From the sequence record NC_073321.1: 43,372 bases of DNA; one strand, 5' to 3'. Source of the DNA: Escherichia phage ZCEC5. The position numbers and the translations under genes are program-made. The notes under the pieces were generated by a model. It was not told the DNA's origin, made no database searches, and saw only the letters and a program-made list of their open reading frames with translations. Position 1 is the stretch's first letter; each line of letters begins with the position of its first letter. This document shows, one piece after another, positions 1-43,372 of this stretch.

Positions 1-486
1 ATGAGAAACATTAGCAACAATGGCATCAAATTCACCGCAGCGTTTGAGGGATTCCGTGGGACTGCGTATCGTGCTACGCCGAATGAGAAGTACCTGACTA
101 TCGGCTACGGGCACTATGGCCCAGACGTAACCCCAGGTAAGACCATCACACCTGGACAAGGTCTCCTGTTACTGAATCGCGATATGGCTAAGGCCGTAGC
201 TGCGGTTGATGCGGCAGCGCACCGCTCCCTGACACAGTCACAGTTCGACGCAGTATGCGACCTGGTGTATAACGCTGGTGCCGGTGTGATAGCAGCTACT
301 ACCGGCACAGGTAAGGCACTGCGTTCCGGTGATATTGCAACACTGCGTACCAAGCTGGCGCTGTTTATCAACCAGAACGGCAAACCATTACTAGGCCTGC
401 GCCGCCGTACAGCCGGTCGCCTGGCGCTGTTCGATGGCAAACCGTGGCAGGAGGCGGAGGCAATTGGGCGCGCGGTGAAAGGTTGA
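1..486 (+). CDS. Endolysin (phage lysozyme, T4-lysozyme/GH24-like)
   Basis: 161 aa; N-terminal EGFRGTAY...TIGYGHYG lysozyme-like motifs; ORF begins exactly at window start and may be coupled to the HNH gene at the window end if circular. Confidence 0.8.
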   Translation: MRNISNNGIKFTAAFEGFRGTAYRATPNEKYLTIGYGHYGPDVTPGKTITPGQGLLLLNRDMAKAVAAVDAAAHRSLTQSQFDAVCDLVYNAGAGVIAATTGTGKALRSGDIATLRTKLALFINQNGKPLLGLRRRTAGRLALFDGKPWQEAEAIGRAVKG

Positions 487-6550: not shown

Positions 6551-7602
6551 GCAAGCTATCGCAGATGATTATCAGCCATCAAATATGGCTACAGAGACTA
6601 GGAACGCAAACAGCGTCGCTGTCCGTCCCCTTCGTCAATAAGATGCGTGCGGAGGTGCGCGACGCGGTGCTTAAGTTCGGTGACGACGCGCGCACAGTGA
6701 AGAAGCTGAATAAAATGCTGGCAAGCCTGGATGGCGTCCTGGATGACGTCACCGGCGACTGGAAGAGCACGATAGAGAAGAGCCTGCGCGAGATTGCCGA
6801 CTACGAGAATAAGTGGTTTATCCATACGCTGGAGGCCAACACGAAGCCGAAAACGTTCATTACTGGACCTACGGCAGAAGAACTGTGGTCGCGTATCAAG
6901 TTCGCACCACTGGCGCTGAGTAACGCACCTGTTGGTGTTATGGACCTGATGTCCGGTTGGGCTCAGACCGAGCGTAACCGCCTTGTGCGTGGCGTACAGA
7001 CAGGCTTTGTGCAGGGGCAGACAACCCGCCAAATTGTCTCTGCCGTTGTGGGTCCCGGTGGCCTGGCAGATATCTCTGAGCGCAACGTAATGACGGTAGT
7101 CCGAACAGCAGTGAGCCACGTATCGAACACGGCGCGAGATTCTGTGTACGACAGCAACAGCGATATTGTGAGCAAATATCAGTGGGTATCTACGCTCGAC
7201 AGCCGCACTTCGACTGTATGTAAGTCGCGCGACGGCCAGAAATATGACGTAGGCAGAGGGCCTATGCCCCCCGCACACCCAAACTGCCGCAGTACCACTA
7301 TCCCGGTAATCGAAGATGACTTCCTGGACTTTCTCGACGAGGGGGCTAAGCGGGCGGCACGCGGGGCGGACGGTGGTACTCAGGTAAGCGCGGACACCAC
7401 TTACTACGAGTTCCTTAAACAACAACCAGCGTGGTTCCAGGACCAGGCGCTCGGCCCGGTGCGCGGTAAGATTTTCCGCAACAGCGGTATATCACCAGAA
7501 GAGTTTCGCGTAATATCTGTAGATGGTTTCGGGAATCCGCTGACGCTTAAGCAGATGGCGGAACTCGATAAACGTGTTGCTGATTATCTGAAAGGGGAAT
7601 AA
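6547..7602 (+). CDS. Head morphogenesis protein (minor head protein, Mu F/SPP1 gp7-like)
   Basis: 351 aa, ATGA-coupled to portal; position and size typical. Confidence 0.65.
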   Translation: MSKLSQMIISHQIWLQRLGTQTASLSVPFVNKMRAEVRDAVLKFGDDARTVKKLNKMLASLDGVLDDVTGDWKSTIEKSLREIADYENKWFIHTLEANTKPKTFITGPTAEELWSRIKFAPLALSNAPVGVMDLMSGWAQTERNRLVRGVQTGFVQGQTTRQIVSAVVGPGGLADISERNVMTVVRTAVSHVSNTARDSVYDSNSDIVSKYQWVSTLDSRTSTVCKSRDGQKYDVGRGPMPPAHPNCRSTTIPVIEDDFLDFLDEGAKRAARGADGGTQVSADTTYYEFLKQQPAWFQDQALGPVRGKIFRNSGISPEEFRVISVDGFGNPLTLKQMAELDKRVADYLKGE

Positions 7603-8063
7603 TGATGGGCTTTTTCAAAATTACTGATGTACCGTCGCGTCGCGTAGTCCAGTTTGCCCGTGTGTCTGGCTCTGGCGAGAACGTGGTGTTTATTGAGGAT
7701 GAAAGTGAACTGGGTACACCAGTAGACGATATGCCGTTTGCAGATAAAACCGGTATTGCGCTACCAGCGGCGGGCATGCTTTACGAGATTCCGTATCTGG
7801 CGGACGCTGGTGACGTGTATTTCTCTGCGCAACCGCAGGACGCTGAACTGGCGGGCGGCAGCGCAACTATCACTGTCGAAGTTAAAGCCGGTAAAGCGCC
7901 ATACTCGCTGACCTGGTACAAAGACGGTAAGGAAGTGGTCAATGCCCCGGAAGAGGCTTTGTCTCTGACAGTTAATGCTGTAGGTGAATACTTCGTTAAA
8001 GTTACTGATGCCGATGGTGTAGAGGCTGTGAGTAAAGCGGCGAAGGTTACTAAGCCAGAATGA
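7602..8063 (+). CDS. Ig-like domain protein (possible head decoration)
   Basis: C-terminal Ig-like signature (TITVEVKAG...YSLTWYKDGKEV...GEYFVKVTDADG); paralogous to the 11084 product. Confidence 0.55.
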   Translation: MMGFFKITDVPSRRVVQFARVSGSGENVVFIEDESELGTPVDDMPFADKTGIALPAAGMLYEIPYLADAGDVYFSAQPQDAELAGGSATITVEVKAGKAPYSLTWYKDGKEVVNAPEEALSLTVNAVGEYFVKVTDADGVEAVSKAAKVTKPE

Positions 8064-8066
8064 TAA

Positions 8067-8093
8067 AAGGCCCCGTTAAGGGGCCTTAGTTTT
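8067..8093. terminator. Bidirectional intrinsic terminator
   Basis: AAGGCCCC-GTTAA-GGGGCCTT flanked by A-run and T-run; sits between convergent genes. Confidence 0.6.
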
Positions 8094-8316
8094 AAACTTC
8101 CACGTCTATTACCAAATCATCTGGTACGGTTATTACTATTTTATCGTTTTCATAGAATGGGTTAAGAGGCTCATTTTCAGGCTGCAGACGTAAAGTTATC
8201 TTTTTACCGCCAAGATAATTTATGTAACGAACCCAGTACCATTGGTCAAATACTTCCACCTTATCACCTGGGCATACGTCCGAGGCCTTCTTCTGATTCA
8301 TATATCTTACTGGCAT
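8092..8316 (-). CDS. Hypothetical protein (74 aa), opposite-strand accessory gene
   Basis: Perfect RBS AGGAGG, own promoter, terminated by the bidirectional hairpin. Confidence 0.55.
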   Translation of the reverse strand: MPVRYMNQKKASDVCPGDKVEVFDQWYWVRYINYLGGKKITLRLQPENEPLNPFYENDKIVITVPDDLVIDVEV

Positions 8317-8342
8317 ACATACCTCCTGTCTAAGTTAACTGA

Positions 8343-8371
8343 ATAGTAGCCTATTATGCTGGGGTGCGCAA
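8343..8371 (-). promoter_or_regulatory. Class B promoter TTGCGC-17-TACTAT containing palindrome AATAGGCTACTATT
   Basis: Near-identical copies at 16926-16954 (-), 39509-39537 (+) and 40677-40705 (+). Confidence 0.5.
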
Positions 8372-8423
8372 ACTGTTTATTTACGTATTCCAGTTATTCC
8401 ACAGAATTGCAAATGTTGGAATA

Positions 8424-8439
8424 AACTATTCGAATAGTT
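8424..8439. promoter_or_regulatory. Perfect 16-bp palindrome AACTATTCGAATAGTT (operator-like)
   Basis: Overlaps -35 of the 8438 promoter; half-sites are the same CTATT/AATAG pentamers as the promoter palindromes, inverted. Confidence 0.45.
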
Positions 8440-8466
8440 GACTTTTCACTGAAAATGTGCTAAGCT
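8438..8466 (+). promoter_or_regulatory. Sigma70-like promoter TTGACT-17-TAAGCT with TG extension
   Basis: -35 TTGACT 8438-8443; TGc immediately upstream of -10 TAAGCT 8461-8466. Confidence 0.45.
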
Positions 8467-8472
8467 CCACCT

Positions 8473-8675
8473 GAGCTTGTGAAGTATGAACAAGCGACCG
8501 CGGCGCGGGCAGGTAACGGAGCGGGACGTAAGTCCTGAGTGTAGTTACGCTGACGCGTTCGGAAGGGCCACACTCTATTTCTTGTGTAAAAAGTAACTGG
8601 TTTACTGAGATTACGCCGTTTCTATGTTTAAATGATAAGGACTAGCGCCCCGCTTTAAGGCGGGGCTTTACTTAT
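8473..8675 (+). ncRNA. Candidate ~200-nt leader transcript / small RNA
   Basis: Noncoding GC-rich stretch between promoter 8438 and terminator 8644; contains only a weak 36-codon ORF (8486-8596). Confidence 0.25.
8644..8675 (+). terminator. Intrinsic terminator directly upstream of spanin genes
   Basis: Stem GCCCCGC / GCGGGGC (7 bp) followed by TTTACTTAT. Confidence 0.5.
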
Positions 8676-8690
8676 CGAGAAAGGAGAAAC

Positions 8691-9077
8691 ATGAATCTTA
8701 AAGAAACTGTCGTAGCAGGAGCATGTTTCGCCATCCTGGCTCACGCCCACGGCATATACCAGTATCGCAGCGGCTGGAACGAAGGCCGGGCAAATCTCGT
8801 TTCGCAGCAACAGCAGAAAGCGCAGGCTGAGTTAGCGAAGAAAACACAACGGCAGCAGCAGGACGAATCAAAGGCCGCAGCCGCTGACAACGAAGGCAAG
8901 ACGAAATCAGAGGTGATTACCCGTGAAGTCGTTAAGTACATTAAAACGCCTGGTCGCAGCGTGTGCACTTTTGACCCTGAGCGCGTGCAGCTCAAGTCCC
9001 GCGCCGTCGCCAACGCCAATTCCATCCCCGGATACGACGATGATGCAGCCGCCGTGCAAACTGGCCTCGCCAAGTAG
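8691..9077 (+). CDS. i-spanin (Rz-like)
   Basis: N-terminal TM segment then Q/A/K-rich coiled-coil region; overlapped by o-spanin ORF. Confidence 0.7.
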   Translation: MNLKETVVAGACFAILAHAHGIYQYRSGWNEGRANLVSQQQQKAQAELAKKTQRQQQDESKAAAADNEGKTKSEVITREVVKYIKTPGRSVCTFDPERVQLKSRAVANANSIPGYDDDAAAVQTGLAK

Positions 9078-9186
9078 CGATGCCGACGAGGATTTGGCTA
9101 TCGACGTTCAGAACGCCGAATGCGTACGGCAACTGAGACTGAAAGTGTTCATGTTGCAGGATTACGTGAGGAATATTCTGGAATAG
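8923..9186 (+). CDS. o-spanin (Rz1-like outer-membrane lipoprotein)
   Basis: Lipobox LLTLSAC, Pro-rich mature region; GTG start in alternate frame overlapping the i-spanin 3' end. Confidence 0.7.
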   Translation: MKSLSTLKRLVAACALLTLSACSSSPAPSPTPIPSPDTTMMQPPCKLASPSSDADEDLAIDVQNAECVRQLRLKVFMLQDYVRNILE

Positions 9187-9268
9187 TTGCCTTGCATGTT
9201 GGAATAATTTATTCTTGACATGTAAATCCGGGTGGCCCGGATTCCAACGTCCAGGGGACATACTGACT

Positions 9269-9970
9269 ATGAATCGTTTTTTACGTTATCCGTTCCAGGA
9301 AGAAGCTGGGGCAGAAGATAAAGCTAGCGGCGGTGACGCGCCGAAAATGTTCACCGCTGAAGAAGTTCAGGCGCTGATTGAGAAAGAAGTTGCCGGGCTT
9401 AAGGCTAATCAGGAAGCATTGCTGGCGGAGAAGAAAGAAGCCGCTCGTAAAGCAAAAGAAGCCGAAGAAGAACGGCAGCGCGCACACCAGGAGGCGTTAA
9501 AAGCCGCCGGTAAGATGGACGAGTTCGAAAAGACGATTCGTAGCCAGTATGACCCGGTGTTAGCTGAGAAAGATGGCCGCATCTCTAAAATGGCGGAGCG
9601 CATCCTCGGCAGCGAACGTAAAGCGGTGTTAGGCTCTTTCGCTGGTGACTTTATTACCCCGGAAGCAGTGGACATCCTCGCACCGTTCGTTAAGACTGAG
9701 TTCGAAGGTGATGATGTGGTTACTAAGTTTGTCGGCGCAGACGGTAATGTAATCACGACTGACCCGGAACAGTTCCGCAAATACCTGCGTGAACACAAAG
9801 CGTTTTCGCATTTGATTAAAGCAAATGCAGCTTCCGGCGGCGGGGCTTCCGGTAGCAAAGGCGGCGGGGCCGCACCAGCGTTTAAAGACATGAGTGAAGC
9901 AGAGCGTTTAGCCCTGTATAAATCGAACCCTGCCGAATTTGAACGGCAACTTAAAGCCCTGAGGAAATAA
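9269..9970 (+). CDS. Scaffolding protein (putative)
   Basis: Charged, A/E/K-rich coiled-coil-like protein immediately upstream of major capsid; ATG 9269 with RBS AGGGGA. Confidence 0.6.
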   Translation: MNRFLRYPFQEEAGAEDKASGGDAPKMFTAEEVQALIEKEVAGLKANQEALLAEKKEAARKAKEAEEERQRAHQEALKAAGKMDEFEKTIRSQYDPVLAEKDGRISKMAERILGSERKAVLGSFAGDFITPEAVDILAPFVKTEFEGDDVVTKFVGADGNVITTDPEQFRKYLREHKAFSHLIKANAASGGGASGSKGGGAAPAFKDMSEAERLALYKSNPAEFERQLKALRK

Positions 9971-11037: not shown

Positions 11038-11066
11038 GAGAGGGACTTCGGTCCCTCTTTTCATTT
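11038..11066 (+). terminator. Terminator/RNA-stability hairpin after capsid gene
   Basis: GAGAGGGAC-UUCG-GTCCCTCTT with UUCG tetraloop, then T-rich run. Confidence 0.45.
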
Positions 11067-26051: not shown

Positions 26052-26078
26052 AAGGCCCCCACGGGGCCTTATTTATTT
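26052..26078. terminator. Bidirectional intrinsic terminator between convergent operons
   Basis: AAGGCCCC-CAC-GGGGCCTT followed by ATTTATTTT. Confidence 0.6.
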
Positions 26079-26297
26079 TGCGGCAATAACCCTTAATTTA
26101 TCCGTAGATAGATGATTTTTTCGTCTTGTTTCTGCCCGCACTGCCCCGTAAATGCCGGATCTACGCTGCGCCCTTATACGAACTTTCCATATCCGCATTT
26201 CTTTTTTGTGGGCTTTAATATCCCTGTAGTTCAGCCAACTCCAGAACATAATTTGCATTATTTTTATCAACAACGGTGTTTCATAATTGTATTTCAT
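26073..26297 (-). CDS. Hypothetical protein (74 aa)
   Basis: Last ORF of leftward operon, ATGA-coupled, stop abuts terminator. Confidence 0.4.
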   Translation of the reverse strand: MKYNYETPLLIKIMQIMFWSWLNYRDIKAHKKEMRIWKVRIRAQRRSGIYGAVRAETRRKNHLSTDKLRVIAAK

Positions 26298-36005: not shown

Positions 36006-36221
36006 ATGCAACCATCTGAACTAGGCATCCGTGTAGAACAACGCCGTAAAGAACTCGGCATCTCCCAGCGCCGTCTGGCTGTCCTGACCGGAGTTTCCCA
36101 GGGCGCGATTAACCAGCTTGCGCTCGGAGTAACTCAGGACGTCCGCCCGGCGACGCTGTTTAAACTGGCGGAAGTGCTTGAAGTAGACGCCAAGTGGCTG
36201 GCGTTAGGTGAAGGGGCTTAA
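36006..36221 (+). CDS. HTH XRE-family (Cro/C1-type) transcriptional regulator
   Basis: 71 aa; LGISQRRLAVLTGVSQGAINQL helix-turn-helix; strong RBS AAGGAG. Confidence 0.75.
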   Translation: MQPSELGIRVEQRRKELGISQRRLAVLTGVSQGAINQLALGVTQDVRPATLFKLAEVLEVDAKWLALGEGA

Positions 36222-39153: not shown

Positions 39154-39182
39154 TTGACATTATGAAAATCTTCGTTTAAGGT
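39154..39182 (+). promoter_or_regulatory. Rightward candidate promoter TTGACA-17-TAAGGT
   Basis: Consensus -35; -10 similar to the 8461 hexamer; divergent from the leftward promoter. Confidence 0.3.
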
Positions 39183-39188
39183 GCTTCT

Positions 39189-39443
39189 ATATCTTAGTTA
39201 CTTTGATTCCTGTTCACCTTGTAAGAATGTTTAACCCGTGCGTCAAGCAAAGGGTTAAACACAGGCTTACTGAACATAAGAATTATAGTAACTTTCCTTC
39301 CTTAGTATCTCCAGTTGCCATGGGCAAGCTCTATTCTCATCGGCAGCATATCTCTTAAGTATCTGATTTTCTTAATGTGCCGTAGATTCGCAACCGTAAA
39401 AATGTAACGATTATTGGGCAGGCTTAAGGCCTGCCCTTTAGTT
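39189..39443 (+). ncRNA. Candidate ~250-nt noncoding RNA in the divergent control region
   Basis: No ORF; contains 9-bp perfect inverted repeat GTTTAACCC-N14-GGGTTAAAC (39229-39260); ends at an intrinsic terminator. Confidence 0.2.
39416..39443 (+). terminator. Intrinsic terminator in noncoding region
   Basis: GGGCAGGC-TTAAG-GCCTGCCC followed by TTTAGTT. Confidence 0.5.
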
Positions 39444-42291: not shown

Positions 42292-42600
42292 TTGGATAAA
42301 TTTACTGAAACAGTGACAGGCTGGCTCCTCGCCGCCGCACTAGCCGGTGGGGTAATCGGACTACGACAACATAAGTCCGCTATTTCCGGCCCTATCGACG
42401 GATTCTGCTTTATTGCAACCGGCTTCACCTGCGCCGTATTTGGTGCGCCTCTCGCGGCTCAATGGTTCGATATTACTGGTGAGCGTGAAATCGCTGGTCT
42501 GGGATTCATCATCGCTATTCTCTGGATGCCTATTTATTCCCGCCTCTCCGGTATCGTCTCTGGAGAATACATCGCTCGTCGAGGAGGCACAGATGAATGA
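42292..42600 (+). CDS. Holin candidate (class I-like, 3 TM segments)
   Basis: 102 aa, three hydrophobic helices, charged C-terminus; TTG start; adjacent to endolysin across the window junction. Confidence 0.5.
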   Translation: MDKFTETVTGWLLAAALAGGVIGLRQHKSAISGPIDGFCFIATGFTCAVFGAPLAAQWFDITGEREIAGLGFIIAILWMPIYSRLSGIVSGEYIARRGGTDE

Positions 42601-42865
42601 GTTATTCTGGTTCGGTGGTATGCTGGCAATCGGGGGCACATCGCTGTTTAATGTGTATCATCCCAGCGTGGACGACGGATTATTTGGCCGGGTGCTCTAT
42701 ATCCTGACTGCCATCGTCTGTGCCGCCGGATGTATCCACCTGTTACAGGGCAGCATGTCACCTACGTTGCCTGAGACATTAATCACATTAGTTGCGCTGC
42801 GCCAGATTCGCCAGGCGTGGCTATCATACGGAGGACATAAGCGTGTCTCGAAACATTTCAGATAA
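42593..42865 (+). CDS. Second small membrane protein of lysis cassette (holin/antiholin candidate, 2 TM)
   Basis: 90 aa; RBS GAGGAGG; ATGA-coupled; basic C-terminus. Confidence 0.4.
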   Translation: MNELFWFGGMLAIGGTSLFNVYHPSVDDGLFGRVLYILTAIVCAAGCIHLLQGSMSPTLPETLITLVALRQIRQAWLSYGGHKRVSKHFR

Positions 42866-43372
42866 TGGGCTTACCGCAGATAAACTGCGGGAGGTTTTAC
42901 ACTACAACCCTGACACCGGAGTTTTTACATGGAAATCTACACGCGTGCACAATGCTCGGGTGGGGAGTGAGGCTGGGGCCAACCATGGCGCAGGCTATCG
43001 CTCCATAGCCCTCGGCGGGAAGCGGTACTTGGCGCATCGTCTCGCCTGGCTATACATGACAGGGGAGTGGCCCAACTCCCTGATAGACCACATAAACGGC
43101 GATGGACGTGATAATAGATTCTGTAATTTACGTGAAGCCAACAAATCCGAAAACGGATGCAACAAAGGGCCAAGAAAGGACAGCAAATCTGGTATTAAGA
43201 ACGTTATGTGGCAGAAGCAACAAGGAGGATGGTACGTTCAATTAAAAATACATAAGATTAAGTATTTTTACGGATACTTTGCGGACCTAGAACTAGCCGC
43301 GCTAGTTGCCGAAGAAGCTAGAGAGAAGATACACGGGGTTTTTGCGAACCATAAATTACGGGAAGGTGCTTT
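42843..43372 (+). CDS. HNH-AP2 homing endonuclease (3' end runs off the window)
   Basis: GTG start with RBS GGAGGA; DHINGDGRDNRFCNLR HNH motif; AP2-like segment; no stop before window end. Confidence 0.7.
   Translation, partial: MSRNISDNGLTADKLREVLHYNPDTGVFTWKSTRVHNARVGSEAGANHGAGYRSIALGGKRYLAHRLAWLYMTGEWPNSLIDHINGDGRDNRFCNLREANKSENGCNKGPRKDSKSGIKNVMWQKQQGGWYVQLKIHKIKYFYGYFADLELAALVAEEAREKIHGVFANHKLREGA

Follow-up and report, generated by a model that had tools for sequence, protein, structure and literature searches.

Two short sequences recur in swapped order on either side of an overlapping pair of Rz/Rz1-like spanin genes in Escherichia phage ZCEC5 (NC_073321.1), and they raise the question of why the pair lies within the block of head genes and what the repeats around it are. 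The stretch analysed, referred to below as the window, is the complete 43,372-nt genome of this phage, a Kagunavirus of the subfamily Guernseyvirinae. A sequence-only reading had proposed that the repeats are either duplicated regulatory sites or scars left by the insertion of a promoter–leader–spanin module. Our analysis indicates that they are probably the control sites of two neighbouring, co-regulated late promoters: P1, which lies upstream of the spanin genes and transcribes a conserved RNA, and P2′, which lies upstream of the scaffold gene. Coordinates of the features are collected in Table 1.

Repeats and operator clusters at two predicted promoters

Both repeats are present as they were described. 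The longer one reads TTGCAAATGTTGGAATAA at 8407–8424 and TTGCATGTTGGAATAA at 9192–9207, the 9-mer GAATAGTTG occurs at 8432–8440 and 9181–9189 and nowhere else in the window, and the order of the two is swapped between left and right. Shuffled sequences contain 0.27 copies of the 9-mer on average, and two copies were reached in 2 of 100 shuffles. The best ungapped form of the long repeat is 8413–8431 against 9196–9214, which agree at 17 of 19 bases. As a unit, however, the long repeat stands only in part. The TGGAATAA..TATTC segment and its neighbours are invariant in an alignment of relatives, whereas the TTGCA(A)ATGT portion is variable; on the right, the corresponding stretch differs by genus and reads GCATGT, AGTAAG or CTCCTG.

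Chance does not account for the repeats when the wider motif to which they belong is included in the count. The hexamer GGAATA/TATTCC occurs 19 times in the genome, with no genome-wide enrichment. Six of these hexamers fall into two clusters, each with three sites inside 50 bp (8386, 8395 and 8418; 9170, 9180 and 9201), an arrangement for which first-order Markov resampling gives a mean of 0.003 clusters in 2000 sequences and never two. Exactly two perfect copies of the 14-bp site GGAATA-N3-TATTC are found in the window, and seven copies with at most one mismatch compare with an expectation of 0.45. Phage Jersey contains the 14-bp site twice, at equivalent positions (~0 expected), and Cornellvirus FSL SP-031 has the same two together with a third inside the spanin genes. 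This third copy, also perfect, is found where the Rz1 gene starts and is on the minus strand (26069–26082 of FSL SP-031).

Cluster 1, at the left repeats, is composed of TATTCCAGTTATTCC (8386–8400), a gap of ~16 nt, the core site TGGAATAAACTATTC (8417–8431) and the perfect palindrome AACTATTCGAATAGTT (8424–8439). The palindrome runs straight into the TTGACT of P1, the −35 element of which is overlapped both by the cluster and by a one-mismatch operator, AATAGTTGACTTTT (8433–8446). Transcription from P1 is predicted to start near 8473/8474. This promoter is conserved in relatives and is duplicated along with the RNA in the early-region copies described below. Cluster 2, at the right repeats, begins with the half-sites GGAATATTC (9170–9178) and TGGAATAG (9179–9186), the second of which includes the Rz1 stop codon; AGGAATATTCTGGAATAG comprises the last Rz1 codons and that stop codon. 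P2′ follows, with a predicted −35 element TTGCCT (9187–9192), a 17-nt spacer containing TGGAATAATT and a −10 element TATTCT (9210–9215). Its core site, TGGAATAATTTATTC at 9200–9214, falls within the spacer and the −10 element, while that of P1 is centred near −50. Additional TGGAATA half-sites accompany the core site in both clusters. The GGAATATTC half-site may resemble host transcription-factor boxes such as the RcsB box, a likeness that is not used as evidence. TTGACA at 9215–9220 was considered as the −35 element of a second promoter and rejected, as it reads TTGTTA in Jerseyvirus and has no usable −10 partner.

Conservation across cluster 2 and P2′ is nearly complete. The element is invariant in the three genera compared except for the 6-nt spacer 9194–9199, and positions 9169–9193 and 9200–9217 are nearly invariant in 24 distinct sequences, including the third positions of the last Rz1 codons. 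These codons lack synonymous variation while their neighbours vary, which indicates that the DNA is constrained beyond coding. In Cornellvirus, a minus-strand moron gene with its own promoter separates Rz1 from cluster 2, which stays directly upstream of the scaffold gene. The right repeat therefore belongs to the scaffold promoter rather than to the spanin cassette.

The 9-mer GAATAGTTG is explained by a second operator family, since the half-site GAATAG abuts the TTG of the −35 element in both clusters. The full palindrome, AATAG-N4-CTATT, has seven exact and three one-mismatch copies in the genome against 1.2 expected, all of them in promoter regions, and besides the P1/P2′ pair it marks at least nine others. 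The set looks like a genome-wide switch-off system for early promoters. It is probably a phage-coded DNA-binding protein that occupies the GGAATA/GAATAG sites and times late transcription, and a 71-aa Cro-like HTH_3 protein is a candidate for this role. The arrangement shares with Cro/CI-type operator arrays a short palindromic operator that recurs at numerous promoters, among them those around a small HTH_3 gene. It differs from them in that the phage is virulent, the binding protein is putative, and the late promoters use the related but distinct GGAATA-N3-TATTC, placed otherwise relative to the −35 element.

These observations support the proposal that the repeats are duplicated regulatory sites: both copies adjoin promoter-like elements, have remained invariant while the flanking genes diverged, and are part of a wider motif grammar. 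The competing proposal, that they are target-site duplications or recombination joints left by a mobile promoter–leader–spanin cassette, draws on the outgroup phage PMBT28, which lacks the Hoc-like gene, the leader and the spanins, and on the flanking slots, which are hot spots for inserted genes. It is nevertheless largely refuted, and we consider it very improbable. The order of the repeats is swapped, and no ends of an insert can be defined at their positions: a promoter follows the left copies, and those on the right extend over the Rz1 stop codon and into the next promoter. Their core adjoins promoter hexamers and is invariant across three genera, synonymous positions included, which points to selection. 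In Cornellvirus the right copy has remained with the scaffold gene, away from the spanins, and the left 9-mer is missing from both Jerseyvirus and Cornellvirus although spanins are present there. A different regulatory arrangement, in which the clusters would be paired operators and one protein would loop the ~0.8-kb leader–spanin segment and repress P1 and P2′ until late in infection, also seems unlikely. The 14-bp site does occur twice per genome around the same segment in three genera, each cluster has at least three half-sites, and the P2′ site overlaps the spacer and −10 element, a typical position for repression, with the P1 site near −50. The spacing varies, however, from 783 bp here to 756 bp in Jersey and 1158 bp in Cornellvirus, which has the third site; the binder is hypothetical, and the data fit just as well with the clusters acting separately, each at its own promoter.

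Two further structures are associated with the scaffold transcript. The hairpin in the 5′ untranslated region (UTR) of the scaffold gene is followed by ..AACGUCC, and its stem is lengthened by compensatory changes in Jerseyvirus; a look-alike hairpin, GGGCCCGUGGCCCG..AACGUC, precedes the scaffold gene of PMBT28 (L052, 4046–4065). In addition, a 28-nt inverted repeat (9255–9282/9528–9555; 86% complementary, or 26 of 28 positions when G-U pairs are counted) would pair the ribosome-binding site (RBS) and start codon of the scaffold gene with a segment 250 nt inside its open reading frame (ORF). The few differences found in relatives are compatible with pairing, and the repeat may provide translational control of scaffold synthesis.

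A structured leader RNA and its early-region copy

The interval of ~225 nt between P1 and Rz contains no conserved ORF. It encodes a structured leader RNA, so that the suspected promoter–leader–spanin arrangement exists, with P1 as a predicted promoter, the RNA, and Rz/Rz1 in that order. The RNA is composed of two hairpins. SL1 (8475–8495) begins ~2 nt from the predicted transcript start, and SL2 (8498–8562) consists of basal, middle and apical helices, ~23 bp in all, with an asymmetric internal loop (GGAG/AGUGUA). A single-stranded conserved tail, CGGAAGGGCC (AAGGGCC, 8563–8569), follows SL2 and continues to ..CUAU. Single-sequence folds give the same helices in every leader type, and Jerseyvirus leaders differ in sequence but have the same architecture. 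The covariance model R1, built from Kagunavirus-type sequences, finds one copy per locus and detects the Jerseyvirus type at an E value near 1e-8.

Several features argue that this fold is maintained. In model-fitted alignments of only five or six lineages, 95–97% of cells are paired and 14–17 of 29 pairs have changed on both sides, compared with 26–44% of cells paired in slid-partner controls; owing to the fitting and the small number of lineages, these figures lean towards structure. Conserved G-U pairs fit only the plus strand as RNA. The internal loops (GRARC/AGYGUA) and the tail are constant across relatives while the stems covary, suggesting specific recognition. Across the whole window, no Rfam family reaches its gathering threshold. 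Up to an E value of 10, a search of 8380–9300 returns nothing on SL1 or SL2 and nothing relevant elsewhere, the sole weak match within 8440–8690 being CC0196 (E = 2.3), on the minus strand over the terminator hairpin. The RNA family is established for two genera and the early-region copies only.

Two candidate features of the leader were rejected. The 36-aa ORF at 8486–8596 has its ATG deleted in Jerseyvirus, carries 1-nt indels in relatives and has no PHROG match, and a closing helix (CCU/AGG) around SL1 and SL2 is not conserved and probably lies upstream of the transcript start. ORFs have nonetheless been called across the leader RNA or its early copy in public records (Bas70_0007, Jersey gp08 and Schulenberg_057/058).

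The leader ends in a G+C-rich, terminator-like hairpin that has a short U-tract and is separated from the Rz start codon by 24 nt; the stem of this hairpin covaries in Jerseyvirus (GCCCGGC..GCCGGGC). Strong plus-strand terminators are found further downstream in the late operon at 11038, 15115 and 17622. Just before the leader hairpin lies a mini-ORF, ATG TTT AAA TGA (8624–8635), and in Jerseyvirus the sequence ATG ATG TTT ... TAA ends at the foot of the hairpin. The mini-ORF could reflect ribosome-dependent attenuation; it has no clear Shine–Dalgarno sequence and may be a chance occurrence.

A scan of viral contigs with an anchored pattern, whose other matches were mostly chance or known types, revealed a second copy of the promoter and RNA in one contig (L084). 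This copy is equivalent to 8438–8579, extends exactly from the −35 element through the RNA, and has 79% identity. Its location is the early intergenic region, which separates the leftward replication genes from the rightward early genes, and such a copy is present in ~54 of 179 related records, or ~30% (233 places in the 179 records), including Schulenburg, L AB-2017 and K1G. The early copies have the same fold and lack the GGAATA sites; Jersey has the late copy only. The early slot of the window (39155–39443) instead contains an unrelated cassette, consisting of TTGACA, 17 nt, TAAGGT, ~250 nt without an ORF and a strong terminator (39416–39436), followed by the early promoter, and this region behaves as an exchangeable slot for non-coding cassettes. 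The covariance models found no homologue of the RNA in PMBT28 or in an Achromobacter phage. A scan of genome contigs gave 74 stretches, two of them real, and both were phage contigs mis-binned into bacterial assemblies.

Table 1. Positions of the features discussed, in window coordinates
Feature	Position	Strand	Details
Operator cluster 1 (holds left repeats)	8386–8439	+	Conserved in Kagunavirus, Jerseyvirus and Cornellvirus
Promoter P1 (predicted)	8438–8466	+	−35 TTGACT 8438–8443; 17-nt spacer; extended −10 TGcTAAGCT 8458–8466
Structured leader RNA, ~95 nt	8475–8579	+	8475–8562 plus tail AAGGGCC; folds, covariance models R1/R2
Terminator-like hairpin, GCCCCGCT-TTAA-GGCGGGGC, then UUUACUUAU	8647–8675	+	Hairpin 8647–8666; terminator scan
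i-spanin, Rz-like, 128 aa	8691–9077	+	RBS AAGGAG 8681–8686; phrog_2536, E = 1e-55
o-spanin, Rz1-like, 87 aa, GTG start	8923–9186	+	+1 frame; phrog_1267
Operator cluster 2 and promoter P2′ (holds right repeats)	9170–9215	+	Putative promoter activity
Hairpin CCGGG-UGG-CCCGG	9228–9240	+	5′ UTR of scaffold gene (ATG 9269)
AATAG-N4-CTATT sites	600, 8342, 8433, 16925, 29176, 33088, 35918, 35962, 39525, 40693		
Gene for 71-aa Cro-like HTH_3 protein	36006–36221		Two AATAG-N4-CTATT sites flank its promoter
G+C-rich hairpin after Hoc-like gene (7602–8063)	8067–8087	.	Terminator scan
Small moron gene, 74-aa ORF	8092–8316	−	phrog_8705 (function unknown); variable slot
HNH_3 homing-endonuclease ORF, 176 aa	42843–43372, into 1–3		Pfam, E = 2e-14

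Possible roles of the leader RNA

In the mechanism we propose, P1 and P2′ would be late promoters timed by a protein that reads the GGAATA/GAATAG sites. P2′ would serve the scaffold and capsid genes. The P1 transcript would consist of the two-hairpin RNA from about +2, the terminator-like hairpin and then Rz/Rz1. The nascent RNA would act in cis on the transcribing polymerase, either alone, as the put RNA of phage HK022 does, or as a nut-like site for a small phage protein, and passage through the leader terminator and the later terminators of the late operon would be confined to transcripts initiated at P1. We tentatively prefer cis action because the promoter and RNA move as a unit, the RNA starts at about +2, and the unit heads long operons that contain terminators; our confidence in it stays below even. 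A more specific form of this idea is doubtful: the two-hairpin RNA at 8475–8579 would represent a cis-acting RNA class of its own, with no relation to HK022 put, which gives host RNA polymerase resistance to terminators and which virulent Guernseyvirinae phages use at the late promoter and, in ~30% of Kagunavirus-type genomes, at an early promoter.

The closest parallels are found in lambdoid phages. The put RNAs suppress pausing and termination in cis via the zinc-binding domain of the RNA polymerase β′ subunit. HK022 putL and putR are described as cis-acting antiterminator RNAs (PMC9378689). With put, the leader shares a two-hairpin RNA within a few nucleotides of the transcript start, the lack of an associated ORF and, in some genomes, the presence of two diverged copies, each after the promoter of a different long operon. 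The differences are that SL1 and SL2 together span ~90 nt and are very unequal, compared with ~70 nt for put, and that homology is not detectable. Because it fails this homology test, the leader RNA is at most a functional analogue of put. The late operon of phage lambda is organized as pR′, the 6S leader RNA, tR′, S-R-Rz/Rz1 and the head genes, under Q antitermination. The locus analysed here likewise has a predicted sigma-70 promoter, a ~200-nt leader with a terminator-like hairpin, and lysis genes first and head genes next on one strand. It differs from lambda in that the lysis genes here are the spanins only, with the holins and endolysin ~8–9 kb upstream, in that the leader has a conserved, covarying structure and the promoter has upstream GGAATA sites, and in that the phage is a virulent siphophage and not lambdoid. 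Relatives also have no annotated Q-like protein; among the 83 annotated coding sequences of Bas70 none has an antiterminator (Q-family) name, which is a weak test given that many of its small proteins are unannotated.

Several observations, in addition to the model dependence of the covariation figures, weigh against co-regulated late promoters and a cis-acting leader. The −10 element of P1 matches only 3 of 6 consensus positions, leans on its TG extension and was missed by a simple promoter scan, while P2′ is a consensus match only, at 8 of 12 positions. The GGAATA sites and the AATAG-N4-CTATT operators may have different binders, or be bound by a host factor. The Cornellvirus leader matches neither R1 nor R2, although CGGAAGGGTC is kept, and Jerseyvirus has only a weak U-tract behind the leader hairpin. 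Sequence and structure comparisons reveal no homology to HK022 putL; this element was located in the HK022 sequence, and R1 and R2 have no hit in the put region. The literature searched contains no transcription or RNA study of Guernseyvirinae: for no phage of this subfamily does it give transcript-start, protein-binding or termination data, and it describes neither the operator grammar nor the leader RNA.

The main rival to cis action is that the leader is a stand-alone, trans-acting small RNA, regulatory or decoy, made as a ~200-nt transcript from P1 to the 8647–8666 hairpin, with the spanins expressed by read-through. The early copy has a promoter of its own, and after the RNA come a terminator-like hairpin and a separate promoter of the TTGCAC...TACTAT class for the genes downstream; this layout resembles such a gene and counts against cis action. 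The different promoter, ~250-nt non-coding and terminator cassette in the early slot of the window is also what exchangeable RNA genes would lead one to expect, and there is a precedent in the Stx phages, whose short pR′ transcripts are reported to act as the small RNA StxS (PMC7547250). The duplicated unit, however, ends at ~8579 and excludes the terminator, the spanin mRNA has the late copy as its 5′ leader in all the Kagunavirus and Jerseyvirus genomes examined, with only 24 nt from hairpin to Rz start, and no target has been identified. On balance we regard a small RNA as rather unlikely. Less probable still is that the hairpins are processing or stability elements, with the 5′ hairpin protecting against RNase E and SL2 serving as an RNase III site, as in T7 early mRNAs. 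The position of SL1 ~2 nt from the predicted 5′ end, the ~23-bp SL2 with its asymmetric internal loop, and the predicted P2′ scaffold mRNA, which likewise starts with a hairpin, are consistent with this idea. The conservation of the loops and tail while the stems covary is more indicative of specific recognition than of generic double-stranded RNA, and processing elements would not account for the movement of promoter and RNA together as one unit. Cis action of the nascent RNA is kept as the preferred, if tentative, reading.

Spanin genes, gene order and implications

The Rz/Rz1-like pair is real, and both genes pass the membrane and lipoprotein checks. Rz has an N-terminal hydrophobic segment at residues 6–22 (Kyte–Doolittle mean/maximum 1.62), and the remainder is polar and rich in Gln, Ala and Lys. 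The Rz1 gene, in the +1 frame, shares 155 nt with the 3′ end of Rz and encodes a predicted signal peptide with the lipobox LLTLSAC, in the context MKSLSTLKRLVAACALLTLSAC with Cys22 and then SSSPAPSPTPIPSP, followed by a proline-rich mature part. Its match to phrog_1267 covers residues 9–86 (E = 2e-20). Relatives keep the signal peptide and lipobox (LSAC, LASC or LSGC) despite differing signal-peptide sequences. The pair thus has the features of two-component spanins that can be recognized from sequence: an i-spanin with an N-terminal membrane segment, a lipoprotein o-spanin encoded in an overlapping +1 frame, and membership of PHROG Rz-like families. In many public records Rz1 is cut to a 47-aa C-terminal part without signal peptide and lipobox, whereas the Jersey record annotates the long form.

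Nothing about the proteins is unusual, and the position of their genes away from the holin and endolysin genes, the only departure from other two-component spanins, is already known for Guernseyvirinae (PMC6763661). Both the location and the proteins are ordinary for the subfamily. The window is 93–96% identical to Kagunavirus phages such as Ro145c2YLVW and Bas70 over 1.6 kb around the locus, and the gene order in this genus is head-morphogenesis gene, Hoc-like decoration gene, variable slot, two spanin genes, scaffold and major capsid. The placement of the pair within the head-gene block is borne out by synteny in Kagunavirus, Jerseyvirus and Cornellvirus. Because the spanins lie between the Hoc-like and scaffold genes also in 48 IMG/VR loci, in Jersey and in FSL SP-031, this position is a fixed trait of the subfamily.

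The spanin genes begin ~8.2 kb downstream of the endolysin stop codon. The distance of 34 kb from the holin candidates given in the sequence-only reading is an artefact of where the circular map was cut: alignment to Bas70 joins position 42868 of the window to position 31, and the holins (42292–42865), an HNH endonuclease gene and the endolysin (1–486) are contiguous across the window ends. Bas70 lacks the HNH_3 ORF, which separates holin 2 from the endolysin in the window. The ORF starts with VSRNISDNG, an echo of the endolysin N-terminus MRNISNNG, which indicates that the beginning of the endolysin gene was duplicated upon insertion. At position 1, the stop codon of the ORF overlaps the ATG of the endolysin.

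In PMBT28, the nearest outgroup (capsid protein 44% identical), the portal, gp7-like, scaffold and capsid genes follow in direct order, with a gap of 78 nt only in the gp7-like/scaffold/capsid block, and none of the GGAATA or operator sites is found there. Since the Hoc-like-to-spanin block is missing from this phage, it is plausible that the block is an ancient insertion, of which the repeats are not the footprint. The accessory-gene slot between the Hoc-like gene and cluster 1 (8064–8385) is empty in some relatives and in others holds Dam methylase, HNH, sliding-clamp or RusA genes; in Cornellvirus there is another slot of this kind, located between Rz1 and the scaffold promoter. In the window it is occupied by the small moron gene, whose promoter (TTGCGC 8371–8366, 17 nt, TACTAT 8348–8343) is accompanied by an exact AATAG-N4-CTATT at 8342–8355. 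The hairpin at 8067–8087 would end both the upstream head operon and this minus-strand gene, and relatives without the moron have GCCCCGAAAGGGGC and then TTTTT at its position, directly before cluster 1. The record of phage celemicas contains a minus-strand tRNA-Ser call covering the 3′ end of the Hoc-like gene; ARAGORN reproduces it in only 1 of 12 loci, and it is probably a false positive unrelated to the leader; ARAGORN finds no tRNA or tmRNA in the window.

The analysis provides a concrete, testable regulatory map for a large group of coliphages that are therapeutic candidates and for Salmonella phages: a palindromic operator at about ten promoter regions, a distinct 14-bp site at two late promoters, and a covarying leader RNA that is absent from Rfam. 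It also identifies recurring errors in public records, namely the o-spanin cut to 47 aa, ORFs called over the leader RNA and a tRNA-Ser that is probably false. As a small RNA, the leader would be an exchangeable phage RNA gene that can reside at two places in the genome. Should the RNA modify RNA polymerase, put-like control would gain a second, independent example, and the engineering of terminator-proof transcription a compact component; if it forms a cis-acting class of its own, processive antitermination that is RNA-only or RNA-nucleated would no longer be confined to lambdoid prophages.

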